From assembly GCA_963702535.1 (NCBI GenBank), contig CAVPDG010000007.1:4949-68948 (forward strand): a DNA stretch of 64,000 nt, written 5' to 3'. Of this stretch, positions 44,052 to 52,181 are shown piece by piece (positions within the stretch are counted from its first letter, which is position 1; each line of letters starts with the position of its first letter). This DNA is from an uncultured Chloroflexia bacterium (GTDB lineage Bacteria; Chloroflexota; Anaerolineae; Anaerolineales; UBA4823). The notes under the pieces are model-generated. The model did not search any database. It worked only from the letters and a program-made list of their open reading frames with translations, and was not told where the DNA came from. Both the position numbers and the translations under genes were made by a program.

Positions 44052-44869
44052 ATGCCAACAACCGGAGAAAAAATCAGATTGAGCCGCCTGTTCTCAGGCG
44101 GGCAGAACGCCGTCGTCGTCGCCATTGACCACGGTCTGTACTTTGGACCGCTGCCGGGGATGATCAACCTGCCGCAGGTGGTCAAATCACTGGGCGGGGC
44201 GGACGCCGTGCTGATGGCGCCTGGGGCTGCGGCGCACTGCTCCAGCATCTTCGAGCAGCGCGGCGCGCCGCCGCTGGTGCTGCGCCTGAATTTTGCATCG
44301 AATTATCTCTCGCCCTGGAAATACACACACTCGCACAGCGTGCCCATGCTCTCGGTGGCCGAGGCCGTAGCGCAGGGAGCGGATATCGTTCTGGCGAGCA
44401 TGACGTTACAGAATCCGGACGAGAAAGAAGACGCTAAAAATGTGGAGCTATTGGCGCATTTCATCAACGAAAAGCGCCTGCTGGGCATCCCGTTGATCGG
44501 CGAGGTTTTCCCCACCGGTGGTGATGACGCTAATCCTGCCGACCTGCACGAGCAGGTGCTCACCGGCTGCCGCATGATGGCGGAGCTGGGCGCCGATGCG
44601 GTCAAGACCTTCTACACCGGCGAGAAGTTCGAAGAAGTGACCGCCGGCACGCCGATCCCCATCCTGGCGCTGGGCGCCAAGAAGACCCCGCTGGAGAGGG
44701 ACGCCCTGCGCCTGGCGGCGACGGCGGTGCGCGCCGGGCGCGCGGCGTGGTCTTCGGCAGGAACGTGGTCCAGGCGAAGGAGCCGGAGCGCTTCCTGGAA
44801 GCGCTCAAGGAAGTGGTCAAGGTCCACGCCGACCCGGATAAGACGGCAGCCAAGTTCGGATTACAATGA
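44052..44869 (+). pseudogene. DhnA/FbaB-family class I aldolase (paralog of 9520..10356), frame broken once at GGG 44736-44738
   Basis: IRLSRLFSGGQNAVVVAIDHG...GADAVKTFYTGEKF...AVRAG, then in a second frame ARGVVFGRNVVQAKEPERFLEALKEVVKVHADPDKTAAKFGLQ-stop (TGA 44867-44869). Compare ARGVVFGRNVIQADDP in the paralog. Confidence 0.85.
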
Positions 44870-44892
44870 GAATAACCCTGGAGGGTATCTGC

Positions 44893-46239
44893 ATGCTTGA
44901 AAATATTCGTGTAGCTTTTTCGCCTTTTGGTTTTTACGGTTATCCCATTGAAGTGGTCTCCCGGCTGGGGCACGAAGCCGCCGAAGCGCTGCGCGGCATG
45001 GGCATCCAGGTCACCGAGACCGACCCGATGACCGGCTTCGATGACGTGCCGCGCGGCTTGCAACAGCTCGCCGGCAAGGAGTACGACGCCATCATCGCCT
45101 GCGTGGTAGCCTGGACGGAGACGCCGGTGATCACCGGCATCCTGCGCGATTACCTGCACCTGCCCATCTTGCTCTGGGGCAGGGGCGGCTACACGGTGAA
45201 CGGGCGCCTGGTATCGCCCGCCGCCCAGGCAGGCACATCCGCCGTGCTGGACACGCTCAAGTTCCTCGGGGCGAAGTTCAAGTACATCTACGATTACCCC
45301 GACAGCCCAATGAGCCTGGATAAAGTAGCCGATTTCTGCACGGCGGCAAAAGCGGTGAGCACACTGGCGCACGCCCGCATCGGCATGATGGGCTATGCGG
45401 ATATGGGTCTCTACTCGCTCATGTTCGACGGCTTGCAGGTGCGCAAAAAGCTGGGCGTGGAGGTGGAGAGCTACGATATGCTCGAGATCGAGCAGGCGAT
45501 GCAGGCGCTGCCCGCGGAAACCGTGCAGGCGCAGATCGCCGAGTGGAAGCAGGATTGGGTCTTCGAGCAACCGGTATTGCCGCCCATCCTGGAGCGGGTG
45601 GCGCGCCTGACGCTGGCGCTCAACGCCAAGATCGAGGCGAGGGGTTACCTGGCTTGCTCCACCAAGTGCGTTTATGGGGTGACCAAGTACATGGGCTGCA
45701 CGGCTTGCATGGCGCAGTCCATGCTGGGCGATAAAGCGCACTTCGTGTGCGAAAACGACGTGCCCGGCATGATCACGCAGACCATGCTGGGGCTGCTCAC
45801 GGGGCAGTCCACCACCTTCCTGGAAATGTACGAGTATTACCCGGACCGCATGTTGGCCGGCGTTTGCGGCTTTACGCCCACTTCCTTTGTCGATGGCGGC
45901 AAGGTGAGCGTGCGCGGCCACACCTGGGGCGGCTCGTCCGGCGGCATCGTCAACACCGCCCAAATGAAGACCGGCAGGGTGACCCTGGCGCGCATCTCGC
46001 TGCATGGGGAGCGCTACCGCATGCACGTCCTCACCGGCGAGGGCGTGAAGCCGCGCGATTGGGAAGAGCTGGGCTGGGCGCCGCCTGCGCCTTACTTCCC
46101 CTCGCTGGAGGTCATCCCGGATGGCGGCATGGAAGAATTCGCTCACAAGGCGCTGGCGCAGCACTATGCGGTGGTCTACGGCGACCACCGCCAGCGGCTG
46201 GTGGATCTGTGTGATTTGCTGGATATCGATGTGATTTAG
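44893..46239 (+). CDS. Short FucI-like isomerase-family protein (paralog 3)
   Basis: Start moved to ATG 44893 (MLENIRVAF...), with GGAGGG upstream. Paralog blocks as for 30776..32110. Confidence 0.7.
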   Translation: MLENIRVAFSPFGFYGYPIEVVSRLGHEAAEALRGMGIQVTETDPMTGFDDVPRGLQQLAGKEYDAIIACVVAWTETPVITGILRDYLHLPILLWGRGGYTVNGRLVSPAAQAGTSAVLDTLKFLGAKFKYIYDYPDSPMSLDKVADFCTAAKAVSTLAHARIGMMGYADMGLYSLMFDGLQVRKKLGVEVESYDMLEIEQAMQALPAETVQAQIAEWKQDWVFEQPVLPPILERVARLTLALNAKIEARGYLACSTKCVYGVTKYMGCTACMAQSMLGDKAHFVCENDVPGMITQTMLGLLTGQSTTFLEMYEYYPDRMLAGVCGFTPTSFVDGGKVSVRGHTWGGSSGGIVNTAQMKTGRVTLARISLHGERYRMHVLTGEGVKPRDWEELGWAPPAPYFPSLEVIPDGGMEEFAHKALAQHYAVVYGDHRQRLVDLCDLLDIDVI

Positions 46240-46272
46240 TCAACCTCGGTTTGGTTCCACAATCGCGAGGGT

Positions 46273-46323
46273 GAAAATTTGAAGACTGCGTGCGGCGGAG
46301 CCGGACGCAGTCTTCAAATTTTC
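46273..46323. terminator. 19-bp perfect inverted repeat at the high-GC / low-GC boundary
   Basis: GAAAATTTGAAGACTGCGT (46273-46291), a 13-nt loop, then ACGCAGTCTTCAAATTTTC (46305-46323). It begins 34 nt after the isomerase stop. Confidence 0.5.
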
Positions 46324-46344
46324 GTAACTACTCAGTCCCCTATG

Positions 46345-46530
46345 CAGCAAAAAAGGTGGAACGTAAGGCTTACCAACCACTGCCTTGTAAAGCACATCCA
46401 ATACGGGCTGACCATTTTTTACGAGCCGTGGAGATGTAACTGCGAATATGGCAGAAAACCTTTCCCCCTCCTCAGTCTGAAAACCACCTGACACCTTTTG
46501 CTCCACCTTTGAGACTGCCAGCAAAAAGTG
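46345..46530 (-). mobile_element. Degraded C-terminal remnant of an IS66-family-like transposase
   Basis: ...KVEQKVSGGFQTEEGERFSAIFAVTSPRLVKNGQPVLDVLYKAVVGKPYVPPFL resembles, from memory, the IS66-type C-terminus (...K(V/I)SGCFRS.EGA..F..IRSY(I/L)ST.RK.G........L..G.P). No catalytic domain is present upstream. Confidence 0.4.
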
Positions 46531-46622
46531 GTCGAAAAACGAGGTGGCAGCAATTCGGCTGCAACCGCTTGTTAAGTATGATTTATGGCTATAAGACCCA
46601 CAAACGGGATAATATAATGTGG

Positions 46623-48131
46623 TTAAGCCTGCGATGTCCCGCAGTATGGGCAAAAAGCACAATTAATTGGGATTGGTTTACTGCAAGAGATACAGCTTTT
46701 TTCGGTAGCCGTTGGTTGCCCACAAACCGGACAATATTTATACTCAGATGGAACTTCATCACCACATTTTGAGCAAGTTATGGTTGACTTTCCCAAAACA
46801 GCAGGTTTGCTTTCATCATCTTTCTTACGAGTAAAGACCTTACCAAACGAACCTTTAACTTTCACACCTGCTCCCGCGGCTGTACCTTTGACACTATCGG
46901 CCGCTTGCCCAGCTGCACCTACGGCCTTAACGGCTACCCCTCCGGCGATGCCAGCTGTTTTTTCAAACACGTTCTTCTGAATGATGATTTGATAATCTTG
47001 AGTTCGTCGCTCAATTTCAGCCATATCCAAAGATACTTGCAAACACTCGGCGATGCCCTCTAAAAATGCACGCTCCTTGTCGGCCAGTTCGCCATCATAG
47101 ATCGCCATCAAGATCAATGTTTCCATTAAACCGTGCTTTACTTCCACATCCTCAATATCAGCAATAGCGGGAAGAATATTATCCTCACTGGCGATCATCT
47201 TTTGAAATTCTGCTTGAGAATGTTCATCAAAGGACATCCGTGATAGCATCGCCTTGTAAAATTCTTTTTCTTTTGAGGAGAACTGACCATCTGCTTGGGC
47301 CACATACATCACTGCGGCTGGAAATGCTAAATCGTAGGTATTTTGACGTGATACCAAAACCCGTAACTCATCCGTAACTTTACCTCTATTTTTTAGATGC
47401 GCTTTGGCAATTCTACCGACTGATTTGGTCGTGACATAATTGTAACTGCTGCCTACAGCTGCCGAAGCCAGAGGAACGGCATATTTCAGAATGGTTTTCT
47501 GTAAAATCCTGATACCCAATCGACGGGCAAAATCCTGGACAGCTTTAAGTGTGCCCTTACTGATGTATTGTTTGACTGCACCTTTTGCACCAGCTCCCGC
47601 TGCCACCTGAAGCCCCCTGCCCAGCATTGCTGTAGGCGTCACTCCTAATGCATACCCAAAAATCATCATCACATCTTCGGGGTCTTCTGGATCAAGTTGG
47701 AGATCATAAACAACGGAAAGATCGAGAACAAGGCGCATTTGAATTTGAGCCAGATAAAGCATCTCGGCTCCAATTGCACCGACGAAGATTGCTGCTGTCA
47801 TTCCCGCAGAAGCTAATGCACTAATTTGATTTGCAGAAGCTACAACCCCGGTAACGGCTCCGGCAATGGTCGCATATCTAACCGTAACGGAGGTCAAGAT
47901 CTCAGCAATTTCATCCGGAGGTAATCCAGGATACTTTTTTTGAAAATATGCCGCTGTAGCATTACGATCATATGCTCGAATAACTTTTTGTAATAATTGA
48001 GTGAACCATTCTCCGCTTTTGACGTCTTCAATATTAAACGATTTGGCGAGTTGTTTGGCTTGATCAAGCTCGGAAGCGACTTGGGTTTTGAGAGCCTCAT
48101 CTTCTGGAATGGTGGTTTCTGATGTTGACAT
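46623..48131 (-). CDS. EcsC-like / TerB-like / double zinc-ribbon fusion protein
   Basis: 502 aa in an AT-rich gene. The N-terminal two thirds are EcsC-like (EWFTQLLQKVIRAY..., MRLVLDLSVVYDLQLDPEDPEDVMMIFGYALGV). The middle is TerB-like (AQADGQFSSKEKEFY...MAIYDGELADKERAFLEGIA). The C-terminus reads CSKCGDEV...YCPVCG...CISCSKPI...FCPYCG. Confidence 0.6.
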   Translation of the reverse strand: MSTSETTIPEDEALKTQVASELDQAKQLAKSFNIEDVKSGEWFTQLLQKVIRAYDRNATAAYFQKKYPGLPPDEIAEILTSVTVRYATIAGAVTGVVASANQISALASAGMTAAIFVGAIGAEMLYLAQIQMRLVLDLSVVYDLQLDPEDPEDVMMIFGYALGVTPTAMLGRGLQVAAGAGAKGAVKQYISKGTLKAVQDFARRLGIRILQKTILKYAVPLASAAVGSSYNYVTTKSVGRIAKAHLKNRGKVTDELRVLVSRQNTYDLAFPAAVMYVAQADGQFSSKEKEFYKAMLSRMSFDEHSQAEFQKMIASEDNILPAIADIEDVEVKHGLMETLILMAIYDGELADKERAFLEGIAECLQVSLDMAEIERRTQDYQIIIQKNVFEKTAGIAGGVAVKAVGAAGQAADSVKGTAAGAGVKVKGSFGKVFTRKKDDESKPAVLGKSTITCSKCGDEVPSEYKYCPVCGQPTATEKSCISCSKPIPINCAFCPYCGTSQA

Positions 48132-48477
48132 AATTACCTCGTGTGCCTTTTTAAATCATTTATTAGGTGCCTGATATTGAAGGTAAATTCGATCTATATG
48201 CGGCTAACAATTTATTATATTGTATTTTTAATGAATCCTGTAATTAGCTTTGCCAAATAATGTGATTTTCTTCACCCAATCTGTTGTCGCCCTCCATGAA
48301 AAAGATATTTGCGTGACCAACACTATTATTTACTTTGGTCTTAATGTCCGAATTACGTCCGAACAATTCGGACTCCTACATCCTGCATCAAGCTCTTACT
48401 GCGACCGATTGAACGCTTACGATCTTCTTTAGATTTTTATCTTTTCTCTGTTAGAAGGCTGAGTAGTTACAAATTTT

Positions 48478-49467
48478 CTATACAACAGACCAGCTGCCAC
48501 TGCGGGCGCTGGCGAAGAGGGCGTCGATGGCAGCCATGTTAGCGATGGCGTCCTCAAGCGGCGTTGGCACGGGGGTATTGTCCAGGATGGCTTTGGAGAA
48601 CAGGTCGCCCTGGATCGTGTACTGGTCGCAAACCCCCAGCTCGTGAGTCTGTTTCCCGTTGGCGGTGTAAACGTTGAGATAAGTGGGGCGGTCGATGGGG
48701 GGGTTGAAGGGGAGCTCGATCTCCAGCCTGCCGTCTGTGCCCAGGATATTCACCTGCTGGAAGTCGGATAGCTGCGTGGCGCAGGTAAACGTGGCGATGC
48801 CCTGTGCGAACTCCATGATGCCGCTGGCAATGCGGTCGGTCTTGAAGCGCGGGTCGAGATCCAGGATAGCGAAAGCGCGAGACGGCTCGCCGGCGAAGAC
48901 CAGGCGCGAGAGGGATACGGCGTAGCAGCCCACATCCAGCAAGCCGCCGCCGCCGATGTCGGCCATGTTGCGCACGTTAGCAGGATCATCCAGGTAATAG
49001 TTGAAGAAAGCGTGGACGGCGCGCACCTGCCCCAACTCCCCGCTCTGGACGATCTGCTGCGCCAGCTTCCACTGCGGGTGGTGGCGGTACATGAATGCCT
49101 CCATCACCTTCAGCTCAGGATGCCGTTTTGCCGCATCCAGCAAGCGGCGCGCGTCCGCCACGTCCAGCCCGAGCGGTTTCTCGCACAGCACATGCTTGCC
49201 GGCTTCCAGCGCCTTGAGCGACCAGGGCACATGCAGGTGGTTGGGCAGCGGGTTGTAGATCGCTTCGATGGCAGGGTCAGCCAGCAGCTCCTCATAGGAT
49301 CCGTAGGCTTTGGAGATGCCGAGCTGCTGCGCGGCAGCCTGCGCCTTTTCCAGGCTGCGCGAGGCAATGGCGGTCACCTGGCTGTATTGCCCTTTCTGCA
49401 TGGCGGGCAGGACTTCGCTCAAAGCGATATTGGCGGTGCTGATCACGCCCCAATTGATTTTTCTCAT
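48478..49467 (-). CDS. Gfo/Idh/MocA-family NAD(P)-dependent oxidoreductase
   Basis: INWGVISTANIA..., the EKPL motif (VLCEKPLGL), and a dimerisation-domain C-terminal half. Confidence 0.85.
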   Translation of the reverse strand: MRKINWGVISTANIALSEVLPAMQKGQYSQVTAIASRSLEKAQAAAQQLGISKAYGSYEELLADPAIEAIYNPLPNHLHVPWSLKALEAGKHVLCEKPLGLDVADARRLLDAAKRHPELKVMEAFMYRHHPQWKLAQQIVQSGELGQVRAVHAFFNYYLDDPANVRNMADIGGGGLLDVGCYAVSLSRLVFAGEPSRAFAILDLDPRFKTDRIASGIMEFAQGIATFTCATQLSDFQQVNILGTDGRLEIELPFNPPIDRPTYLNVYTANGKQTHELGVCDQYTIQGDLFSKAILDNTPVPTPLEDAIANMAAIDALFASARSGSWSVV

Positions 49468-49512: not shown

Positions 49513-50241
49513 TTATTCCTCGGGGGTTGCATGGATCTCCTGTACCAGTATGATGGGAAACGGCAATTTTTCAGATTCGAGAACGGCTGCTAAATTATTG
49601 GCAGATTGTTGGGAAAAATCTCCAGTGATTACTACTGACCCATCTGATATTGGGGCGTTAATTACCGGTTCTGAGATAATCACTTTATCCAGGACAATTG
49701 CAAGAATGGATCCAATATTTGCTCGGGTATGTTCTTCCAGGATACTTGCAGCCTCTGGCTTAAGTGTGAATGCAATCTCGTAACCGCCGTTTTCCGTTTT
49801 CAAGACATTTGCACTCTGAAAATCTTCGTTTATTAGGATCGTATGCCATGCATCTCCCTGCGCCTGAGGTAGATAACCAATTTCTTGGTCGGTCTTGATG
49901 ACGCTACTCAATGGCAGCCTATTTTTCCCCAGGTCTACTAATTCGAGAAATCCGATTGAGCTAAGGCGATCAAGCAAAGCCTGCCTGTCAATATGTTTTG
50001 GAATTTTGCCAACGATTTGTCCCTTGTTATTCACGGAAAAATTTACACCGGAAAACCCTGCGTCGGAAGCCCGATTGGTAAGAATGGTTGCGGTTTTCAT
50101 AAGTAGCGCAGCGTCTGGAGCTGTCACTCTGGAAGTATCGGGCTCATAGATGATTCTTTCAGTATTTATTCGCTGATCAAGCAAGCGAATATACCTGCTT
50201 CCTAAGGTCACGAGTGCACTAACCGCTAGTAGGCAAATCAT
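49513..50241 (-). CDS. SecD periplasmic-head (P1)-like domain protein with an N-terminal TM anchor
   Basis: ILAIVLDKVIISEPVINAPISDGSVVITGDFSQQSANNLAAVLESEKLPFPI matches the SecD P1 block (lAivLDg.visaP.i...I.gG.a.I.G.f...eA..La..L..G.LP) as I recall it. The open frame extends upstream of the ATG without a start codon. Confidence 0.55.
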   Translation of the reverse strand: MICLLAVSALVTLGSRYIRLLDQRINTERIIYEPDTSRVTAPDAALLMKTATILTNRASDAGFSGVNFSVNNKGQIVGKIPKHIDRQALLDRLSSIGFLELVDLGKNRLPLSSVIKTDQEIGYLPQAQGDAWHTILINEDFQSANVLKTENGGYEIAFTLKPEAASILEEHTRANIGSILAIVLDKVIISEPVINAPISDGSVVITGDFSQQSANNLAAVLESEKLPFPIILVQEIHATPEE

Positions 50242-50297
50242 GCCCGCCAGGAATGCCAGGCAGGGGAATGAGCCAGGCAGGCTTTCTTCTGGCGTCT

Positions 50298-50699
50298 CTA
50301 CTTCCTGTTTGACTCTGCACCGCGCCCTGTGTATTGGCGAGCCGCAGATTTTCGTTCGGCTTCTTTATACTCGGGATCGAGCCTCAGGGCTTCTTGATAA
50401 TCGTTAATTGCTTCGTTTATTTGACCCAATTCTTCCAAAAGAAGCCCACGCAGGTTATGCGCTTCTGCAGAATTGGGTTCATATTGAATGGCTTGATCGA
50501 TATTTTTCAGGGCGTTCTTGATATTGCCTTGATCAATATCTTTCTGCGTCCGGTCTAAATAGAATTGGAACAACTCCAGGCGCTTCGTGTTATCAAGGGG
50601 AGCATCTAGATCAGTGCCGCAATGGGGGCATATGCTATCTGCTTCGCTGATCTTGTTTCCACAATCTGGACATCGTAATGGAAAGAGATATCTGCTCAT
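50298..50699 (-). CDS. Zinc-ribbon + TPR-repeat protein
   Basis: CPDCGNKI...CPHCG followed by TPR-like repeats (AEAHNLRGLLLEELGQINEAINDYQEALRLDP). Confidence 0.6.
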   Translation of the reverse strand: MSRYLFPLRCPDCGNKISEADSICPHCGTDLDAPLDNTKRLELFQFYLDRTQKDIDQGNIKNALKNIDQAIQYEPNSAEAHNLRGLLLEELGQINEAINDYQEALRLDPEYKEAERKSAARQYTGRGAESNRK

Positions 50700-50873: not shown

Positions 50874-52181
50874 ATGGCTTTCTCAAGAAAGGGAATTACT
50901 TGCAATCAGCAAGGCGAAAGCTTCCTGAAGATGTCCGGCAAACCACCTTCGGGCATGAGCGGCATTCGTGAAACCGGCCATCTTGAGCAAGCCCAGAACC
51001 AGATTATGTACGATCGCAAGAATCCGTCCTGCCGCACCTTTGGTCATGCGAGTCGCATCTTCATGGAAAGTGACATCCCGCCGATAATGCAAGCCTGTTT
51101 CGATCAACGAATGTTTTCGTCTCACCGCAAGCACTTTTTCAGGCGAAGCTTTCTCCCTGGTGAGGCTGGTAATGCCGAACTCCACTTCACAACTGGTTTT
51201 GTAGACCTTCCCTGGCGTATCCAGGTGAACTTGCGCTCCAGGCGATACACTTGTCCTATCCCAGGCCAACCGAGATAGTCATTGAGCATGGCGCTCGTTT
51301 GGAGGGTGCGTTTTTCGATCCGTCCGTGTCCGCAGTTGACCTTTTCGGTGCCTTGAAAGTCGGTTGCGATCTTACCAAATCCAGGTTTGGGCTGGTCGGG
51401 GGCAAACAGGCGCTGAATATCTTCATACAGGCGTTCCTGGTTCTCCTTGACCGGCCACAGATAGTCGCCGCCTCGCTCAACAATGTGCGCCGAAATGGCT
51501 CGCTGCGTATGCATGGCATCGCCCGTGACGATTTTTCCCGCTATCGACACGTGCCCCAATGCTTTCGGCGCTGCAACAATCTCGTTTTCCTTGATATCTA
51601 CCACCTCCTGAGCTATCACGTGTTGGCTTTGTCCATCGTACACGCTCAAAACATGGTCGCCGCGTTCTTGATCAGCAACCCGTGTACCCCGCAACGTTTT
51701 GCCATCCATTGCCAGTGTTTCTCCGGTTTCATCAGCTTGCGGTTGGTGATACTCCTGCATCAGTTGCTCAAATTCGGCTTCGCTAATAATATCCTGGAAC
51801 ATCCGCCGGTAGGTGTTATGATGCGGCATCCAGCTACGGCGCAACTTCAACAACTTGGCCAATTCTTCCGCATGATTCTTGGCCCAATCGGCAATCGCTA
51901 CGGGTGTGTCCTGGTTGCACAGCTTTGCCAGAAAGATCAACACCATCAATGTCACCAGACTGTAACGTTTCCCTTTAGCCTTGCGCGGATCGCTAATCCG
52001 CTGAAAACGGTCATACAAGCTGCCAAGCGAATATACAATCCCTGTCTCACTGATCTCTTGCCAAAACTCAAGCGTGCTATACTCCATAAGATCCTCTCGG
52101 TGATTCGGCTGTTTAGACGCAACCAATTTTACCGAAGAGGATCATTTTGTCTACCTGTCAAGGTTTCTTGAGAAAGCCATT
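50874..52181 (-). mobile_element. ISAs1-family insertion sequence with 17-bp terminal inverted repeats and an 11-bp target duplication
   Basis: Left repeat ATGGCTTTCTCAAGAAA (50874-50890) and right repeat TTTCTTGAGAAAGCCAT (52164-52180). CCGCATCAATG flanks both ends (50863-50873 and 52182-52192). Confidence 0.8.
50883..52087 (-). pseudogene. ISAs1-family (H-repeat-associated, IS4-like DDE) transposase, frame broken once at 51210-51212
   Basis: MEYSTLEFWQEIS...DPRKAKGKRYSLVTLMVLIFLAKL...LAMDGKTLRG...IVTGDAMHTQR...YRLERKFTWIR, then in a second frame GKVYKTSCEVEFGITSL...HSLIETGLHYRRDVTFHEDATRM.... Adding one G (GGG to GGGG) rejoins the frames. Confidence 0.8.

Follow-up and report, generated by a model that had tools for sequence, protein, structure and literature searches.

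EcsC-Like and TerB Proteins

EcsC-family proteins are widespread and have no assigned function. The Pfam family EcsC (PF12787) includes Bacillus subtilis EcsC, encoded in the ecsABC operon. PADLOC lists candidate members, among them PDC-S29 and PDC-S30, which are EcsC-family, single-gene phage-defence candidates; the PDC candidates are defined by their embedding in BREX, DISARM or type I restriction-modification systems, and their defence activity is predicted only (Payne et al., bioRxiv 10.1101/2024.01.29.577857). NCBIfam NF047767, the "LBF_2804 family protein," holds Leptospira-type EcsC-like and TerB proteins of about 352 amino acids (aa), likewise uncharacterised. Here we describe a complete open reading frame (ORF; 46623..48131, minus strand) in a 64-kb stretch of an uncultured Chloroflexia genome (contig CAVPDG010000007.1), the whole of which is called the window below. 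It encodes a 502-aa protein in which an EcsC-like domain, a TerB domain, a linker and a double zinc ribbon follow one another. The protein is a zinc-ribbon-tailed variant of the catalogued, uncharacterised EcsC-like and TerB family, and the composition, distribution and flanks of its gene point to horizontal transfer.

TerB domains are membrane-proximal in the TerB protein of ter operons, in DjlA and in YebE/DUF533, and in DjlA and the Ter proteins TerB has been proposed to sense a divalent cation or membrane-proximal stress. The Juk preprint (bioRxiv 10.1101/2022.09.17.508391) places EcsC-like genes in putative operons with those for the defence protein JukA, and finds JukA fused to TerB and Zn-finger domains. 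This preprint alone, in the searched literature, mentions EcsC-like, TerB and zinc-finger modules together; it takes them as separate JukA partners, and an EcsC-TerB-ribbon fusion is not described there. The searched literature likewise contained no paper describing such a fusion, and in it neither EcsC-TerB fusions nor LBF_2804 nor PDC-S29/S30/S48 were the subject of a functional study. An earlier reading of the DNA letters (the original prediction) had not recognised the architecture as a described one, which agrees with the searched literature for the complete fusion but not for its core, already catalogued in relatives such as LBF_2804 and PDC-S29/S30.

Domain Architecture and Conservation

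The ORF starts with ATG, and GGAG lies 8 nt upstream. All of its parts are on the minus strand: an N-terminal, all-helical EcsC-superfamily domain (47352..48104; about residues 10–260), a TerB domain with both DG...E motifs intact (46992..47351; residues 261–380), an Ala/Gly/Lys-rich linker that is predicted as a low-confidence helix and then disorder (46788..46991; residues 381–448), and a C-terminal double zinc ribbon of two CxxC...CxxC units (46626..46787; residues 449–502). Profile searches bear out two of the three domain names given in the original prediction: Pfam TerB (PF05099) matches residues 269–367 with 29.7 bits (cut-off 24.4), and Pfam DZR (PF12773) matches residues 453–498 with 38.2 bits (cut-off 27.3). 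The third falls short on the protein itself, since the EcsC match at residues 100–249 scores 18.3 bits against a gathering threshold of 30.4 (E 0.0019). Among 72 diverse relatives drawn from an exhaustive profile search, TerB is matched by 41 and EcsC, with E<=0.001 and a best value of 1e-11, by 34. Because of these 34 relatives, the N-terminal domain can be placed in the EcsC superfamily by transitive homology; the assignment thus holds at superfamily level only, through the relatives rather than through the 502-aa protein alone.

All eight ribbon cysteines (C453, C456, C467 and C470; C480, C483, C494 and C497) are invariant in 19 homologs, and so are the TerB motifs D281-G282-E288 and D346-G347-E353. 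The family profile also finds TerB-like proteins of known structure, 2ou3 (E 1.1e-7) and 2h5n (E 7.3e-6), and the DG...E motifs align with those of both Protein Data Bank (PDB) entries. The three-module architecture is real.

An AlphaFold2 model built on the diverse 72-sequence alignment reached a mean predicted local distance difference test score (pLDDT) of 80.4 and a predicted template modelling score (pTM) of 0.72; this alignment was used in place of an earlier one of 19 close homologs, whose model was unusable (pLDDT 46.7). The model has an all-helical N-terminal domain (residues 9–259) with a long central hairpin (helices 72–108 and 112–141), a helical TerB domain (residues 269–379), a linker of low confidence (residues 380–447, pLDDT 20–65) and two small ribbons at the C-terminus. 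The hairpin is Ala/Gly-rich and moderately hydrophobic (47709..47918, minus strand; residues 72–141), and it may interact with a membrane. Its 19-residue Kyte-Doolittle mean peaks at 1.76 (residues 103–121), a borderline value for a transmembrane span; matches of a few of the 72 relatives to the inner-membrane family DUF697 also speak for a membrane association. Foldseek returned local matches to 2h5n over the TerB domain (PDB, probability 0.99) and to double-zinc-ribbon proteins among viral models (BFVD, probability 1.00). Searches of these two databases gave local matches for the TerB and ribbon parts only, and hence no solved or viral structural analogue for the EcsC-like N-terminal domain.

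Comparison With Described Families

The LBF_2804 family is collinear with the window protein: the C-terminal part of the EcsC-like domain and the TerB domain align to positions 175–348 of the 352-position profile, which is also matched by 40 of the 72 relatives. The protein is nevertheless not a member, as it scores 25.7 bits against a curated cut-off of 80, and its longer N-terminus, its linker of about 70 aa and its double zinc ribbon all lie outside the profile. The PADLOC candidates are stand-alone genes like this one. PDC-S29 is matched by 48 of the 72 relatives and PDC-S30 by 23 (best E 1.7e-13), and the window protein itself matches PDC-S29 weakly (21.1 bits, E 4.3e-5, a score for which PADLOC gives no curated cut-off here). 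However, the PDC-S29 profile has only 220 positions and is too short for a TerB domain or zinc ribbons. PDC-S48 was also matched weakly, and apart from these two families and a marginal REase_II hit the PADLOC scan of the protein returned nothing.

With the TerB proteins at large (ter-operon TerB, the N-terminal domain of DjlA, YebE/DUF533, 2ou3 and 2h5n) the protein shares the TerB fold and both DG...E motifs. Weak DjlA and DUF533 matches are confined to its TerB region, and the DjlA profile is matched over its TerB part only (23.2 bits, cut-off 162). Unlike DjlA and the Ter proteins, the window protein has no DnaJ/J domain in Pfam searches and no ter operon partners, and its membrane module is a different one. 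With B. subtilis EcsC it shares the superfamily of its N-terminal domain; it differs in scoring under the Pfam threshold, in having no ABC (ATP-binding cassette) transporter genes nearby, and in being fused to TerB and zinc ribbons.

The family is large. A word-indexed search scored 8000 candidates and found at least 592 homologs at E<=1e-3; they are mostly 499–505 aa long, and the best 120 of the 592 are 69–89% identical to the window protein. Those that carry names are called "zinc ribbon domain-containing protein" or "tellurite resistance protein" and come from Anaerolineae or Chloroflexi metagenome genomes. When 1.84 billion cluster representatives were searched exhaustively, 3153 matched with E<=1e-3, and for 135 the value was <=1e-30. 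Many of these are proteins of about 380 aa that span residues 10–380, the EcsC-like and TerB core without a ribbon tail, and others are EcsC-only proteins. By these counts the architecture, which the original prediction had described as lone cargo, is neither rare nor lone. The C-terminal tail differs among relatives, being DZR in the Anaerolineae clade and SHOCT in 5 of the 72; the zinc-ribbon tail is specific to an Anaerolineae-centred clade, while the EcsC-like and TerB core is widespread. A motif-anchored, non-exhaustive scan of 185,579 species representatives yielded 55 loci, and no paralog of the EcsC-TerB-ribbon gene was found within the window.

Base Composition, Selection and Probable Horizontal Transfer

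The gene has a GC content of 44.7% and a third-position GC content (GC3) of 0.37, against 58.8% GC for the window, and is thus as AT-rich as first described. About 20 close loci have genes of 41–45% GC in flanks of 41.5–60.7% GC. Synonymous divergence (dS) to the nearest relatives is 0.32–0.50, and the flanks of these relatives have 46, 50, 54 and 61% GC. For the other genes of the window, the fetched loci contained no close homologs. Repeated horizontal transfer is suggested because the distribution is patchy, because a GC content of about 44% is kept across hosts of 42–61% GC, and because dS between hosts is low; we infer that this is a functional accessory gene which came from a low-GC source and was passed on repeatedly between Anaerolineae. 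In this respect the cargo-like character given to the gene in the original prediction agrees with GC content, with dS and with the limits of DNA homology described below.

The ratio of nonsynonymous to synonymous divergence (dN/dS) is 0.08–0.27 overall and 0.12–0.29 per domain, lowest in the hairpin and the rest of the EcsC part (0.13–0.14) and 0.29 in the linker, which is still constrained. All modules are under purifying selection. A sediment metatranscriptome (run X9) contains contigs identical to 46878–47141 and 47211–47407, and the gene appears to be transcribed. The whole stretch is present in no public run; parts of it are found in many sediment, soil, freshwater and wetland metagenomes.

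Very strong conservation, purifying selection in every domain, apparent transcription and a neighbourhood made up mainly of unremarkable genes for metabolism, regulation and housekeeping would also fit a vertically inherited housekeeping protein of envelope or membrane homeostasis in Anaerolineae, whose low GC would reflect gene-specific constraint (codon choice, mRNA features). Such constraint could explain why the gene has a lower GC content than its flanks across nearly all Chloroflexota subfamilies, even those that diverged deeply. In the Actinomycetota clade, however, gene and flanks alike have about 60% GC, so low GC is not intrinsic to the family. Vertical inheritance is also at odds with the presence of the 502-aa type in only about 20 species representatives (in the non-exhaustive scan above), with the lack of synteny even between copies of 83–88% nucleotide identity, and with a dS of 0.3–0.5 between hosts whose flank GC differs by up to 15 points. 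Several copies are broken, moreover: those in L018, L020, L031 and L056 (82–87% nucleotide identity; loci fetched for comparison are labelled L) carry frameshifts or stops, and may be decaying pseudogenes or homopolymer errors in long-read assemblies. Taken together, we regard a housekeeping role of this kind as rather unlikely.

Copies assigned to other phyla were also encountered. A Flavobacteriaceae metagenome-assembled chromosome (CP070731.1; L041, 10001–10834) carries only the first 278 residues, at 81% identity and 44% GC, in a Bacteroidota "chromosome" of 39% GC, where the copy is cut off by an opposite-strand ORF; either the gene crossed between phyla and was later disrupted, or the assembly is chimeric. 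Mis-binning driven by composition is suggested by several contigs of 2–3 kb that carry the gene and are binned to unrelated phyla (Phycisphaerae, Planctomycetota, Babeliaceae).

Genomic Context

The gene appears to be monocistronic, as had been proposed. It is separated by 346 bp from the upstream gene and by 383 bp from the convergent downstream gene, and its adjacent genes in the window, for a Gfo/Idh/MocA oxidoreductase and a sugar isomerase-like protein, are replaced by different ones in every other locus. Fifty-eight loci were fetched for context. When all ORFs within 6 kb were clustered, no neighbour family occurred in more than 3 of 46 loci, and when 150 immediate neighbours were tallied by Pfam family, none was enriched: 3–5 were integrases or transposases, 2 were PemK toxins, and the rest were ordinary genes. 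The original prediction had expected a defence-island setting and had named consistent housekeeping contexts as the finding that would speak against it. Neither pattern appears, as the contexts are simply unrelated to each other.

Genes of the Ter families (terZ/A/C/D/E) do not recur in the 46 loci and are absent from the top 25 families of the Pfam tally. Nor do ecsA/ecsB-type ABC genes recur in the 46 loci; a single hit to PF09818 (ABC_ATPase) represents the sole P-loop family in the top 25. These results bear on a possible role of the protein in the classical Ter system of tellurite or metal resistance or, as an accessory subunit, in an Ecs-type ABC transporter. Its domain names alone speak for such a role (TerB above the Pfam cut-off, an EcsC-like domain, and homologs labelled "tellurite resistance protein" by the Joint Genome Institute). 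With the EcsC score under threshold, and with an oxidoreductase and a sugar isomerase-like gene as neighbours in the window, we consider it very improbable.

Conserved Flanks and Mobile-Element Remnants

DNA homology to other loci covers the ORF with about 65–95 bp upstream and about 90–110 bp downstream, and then stops. The conserved 5′ flank (48132..48224, minus strand) holds a Shine-Dalgarno sequence, a leader and a TATAAT-like box (48219–48214); blastn homology with L002, L004 and L006 reaches 48197–48224, and further flanking DNA differs. The conserved 3′ flank (46510..46622, minus strand), over which blastn homology with L004, L006 and L031 reaches 46510–46534, holds a small hairpin after the stop codon. 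A scan for promoters and terminators gave nothing above shuffled expectation, and Rfam searches of 46000–48700 returned chance-level matches only. With its own 5′ leader and promoter-like box, ORF and 3′ flank, and with no conserved partner gene, the gene is a self-contained unit.

The hairpin directly after the stop codon has a stem of 5 bp (window 46598–46622; CCACA...TGTGG) that reads CCAGA...TCTGG in other loci, a compensatory change from C-G to G-C. RNAalifold predicted two tiny hairpins in the 3′ flank from a trimmed alignment, with weak covariation (double changes in 3 out of 8 predicted pairs), and no structure from a gappy alignment. Neither an RNA element nor an attC-like site is claimed for this flank.

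Next to the 3′ flank lies a probable C-terminal remnant of an IS66-family transposase (46330..46521, minus strand; about 60 aa), which begins exactly at the end of the gene-associated homology. Its tblastn matches are weak (E 0.07–1), and those with annotation are transposases, mostly of the IS66 family or ISGka4; Pfam and NCBIfam gave no match to it. A frameshifted ISAs1-family transposase (50883–52126), split into ORFs 51122–52126 and 50883–51269, lies 2.7 kb from the gene and is recognised by NCBIfam transpos_ISAs1 with 156.6 bits. The mobile-element debris seen in the original prediction is thus confirmed in part.

Possible Functions

Our preferred reading, to which we give about an even chance, is that the protein acts as a stress or membrane sensor-effector, its physiological role being left unspecified. 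The N-terminal helical domain would lie on or in the cytoplasmic membrane by means of its Ala/Gly-rich hydrophobic hairpin. TerB, which has two acidic DG...E motifs, could by analogy with DjlA and the Ter proteins be a sensor of membrane-proximal stress, whether the signal is a divalent cation or something else, and the zinc ribbons, carried on a flexible basic linker (Lys/Gly/Ala-rich), might serve oligomerisation or partner binding. As its output, the membrane domain would change state, for instance by oligomerisation or through permeabilisation. The protein would then be a one-protein stress or defence sensor-effector, and neither a transporter accessory nor a classical tellurite-resistance protein.

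Several points weigh against this reading of a mobile sensor-effector. The hydrophobicity of the hairpin is borderline even at its maximum, and the hairpin might instead lie buried, as the core of a helical bundle that is soluble. Defence genes are not usually so highly conserved in sequence. Transcription is read from assembled contigs, to which DNA carry-over may contribute, and the searched literature shows no experiment on any EcsC-family, LBF_2804 or PDC-S29/S30 protein. The case for transfer uses flank GC as a stand-in for host divergence, and no transfer vehicle was found: there is no phage record, IMG/VR contig or close plasmid copy, and a plasmid search returned only distant Streptomyces megaplasmid relatives at 24–26% identity.

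A more specific alternative is a single-gene anti-phage protein of the abortive-infection type, in which the ribbons or TerB would sense infection and the EcsC-like hairpin domain would damage the membrane. The homology of the EcsC-like domain to PDC-S29 and PDC-S30 in many relatives, the weak matches of the protein itself to PDC-S29 and PDC-S48, and the association of EcsC-like, TerB and Zn-finger modules with JukA (bioRxiv 10.1101/2022.09.17.508391) are in its favour, as is a gene that is AT-rich, transfer-prone, stand-alone and adjoined by insertion sequence debris. However, the PDC families are themselves guilt-by-embedding predictions, their PADLOC matches are domain-level and weak (about 21 bits for the window protein, with little else returned by that scan), and the embedding in defence systems that defines them was not seen for this gene, with no enrichment of defence families around the 46 loci or among the 150 immediate neighbours. 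A low dN/dS and an unusually high conservation, 70–89% identity over hundreds of copies, also sit poorly with such a role, and we think it unlikely. A bolder version would see EcsC-like domains as conditional membrane-inserting effectors, with a hydrophobic hairpin in an amphipathic helical bundle like the pore domains of colicins and Bcl-2. Zinc ribbons and TerB, elsewhere the companions of EcsC-type or JukA genes in separate or fused form, would here be joined to the effector, and by the "Rosetta-stone" argument the fusion would suggest that the modules cooperate. A single polypeptide would then make up the whole immune or stress switch, and its gene would be a mobile abortive-infection module, sufficient by itself, that spreads among Anaerolineae with no recognisable vehicle. 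This is speculative, and we hold it to be decidedly doubtful.

The Anaerolineae clade provides a compact, highly conserved single-gene form, in which the EcsC-like module is covalently joined to a putative TerB sensor domain and zinc ribbons. The fusion suggests which modules cooperate, and it would make a clean construct with which to begin functional work on EcsC-type proteins. Composition and dS also show clearly a chromosomal gene that moves between uncultured Chloroflexota, apparently as a unit from promoter to 3′ flank. The practical value of the locus is that of a lead, as the protein remains an uncharacterised conserved protein.

Other Observations at the Locus and Its Relatives

One subclade (L003, L014, L016 and L054) has partial local synteny, each locus with two or three of three recurring neighbour families; in L003 the neighbours are, by Pfam, thiolase-like and ChsH2-type genes, the latter with an oligonucleotide/oligosaccharide-binding (OB) fold and zinc ribbon. 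The window itself carries two further low-GC genes (44–48%) at 49513–50699, for a stand-alone SecD/SecDF P1-head-like protein (242 aa) and for a protein with a zinc ribbon and tetratricopeptide repeats (133 aa). The 62% GC Gfo/Idh/MocA oxidoreductase gene lies between them and the EcsC-TerB gene, so that native and foreign-looking segments form a mosaic. On the other side, a near-perfect inverted repeat (46275–46321; GAAGACTGCGT...ACGCAGTCTTC), to which Rfam gave only a chance-level microRNA match, lies just past the stop codon of the convergent FucI-like gene (44866–46239) and is probably the terminator of that gene.

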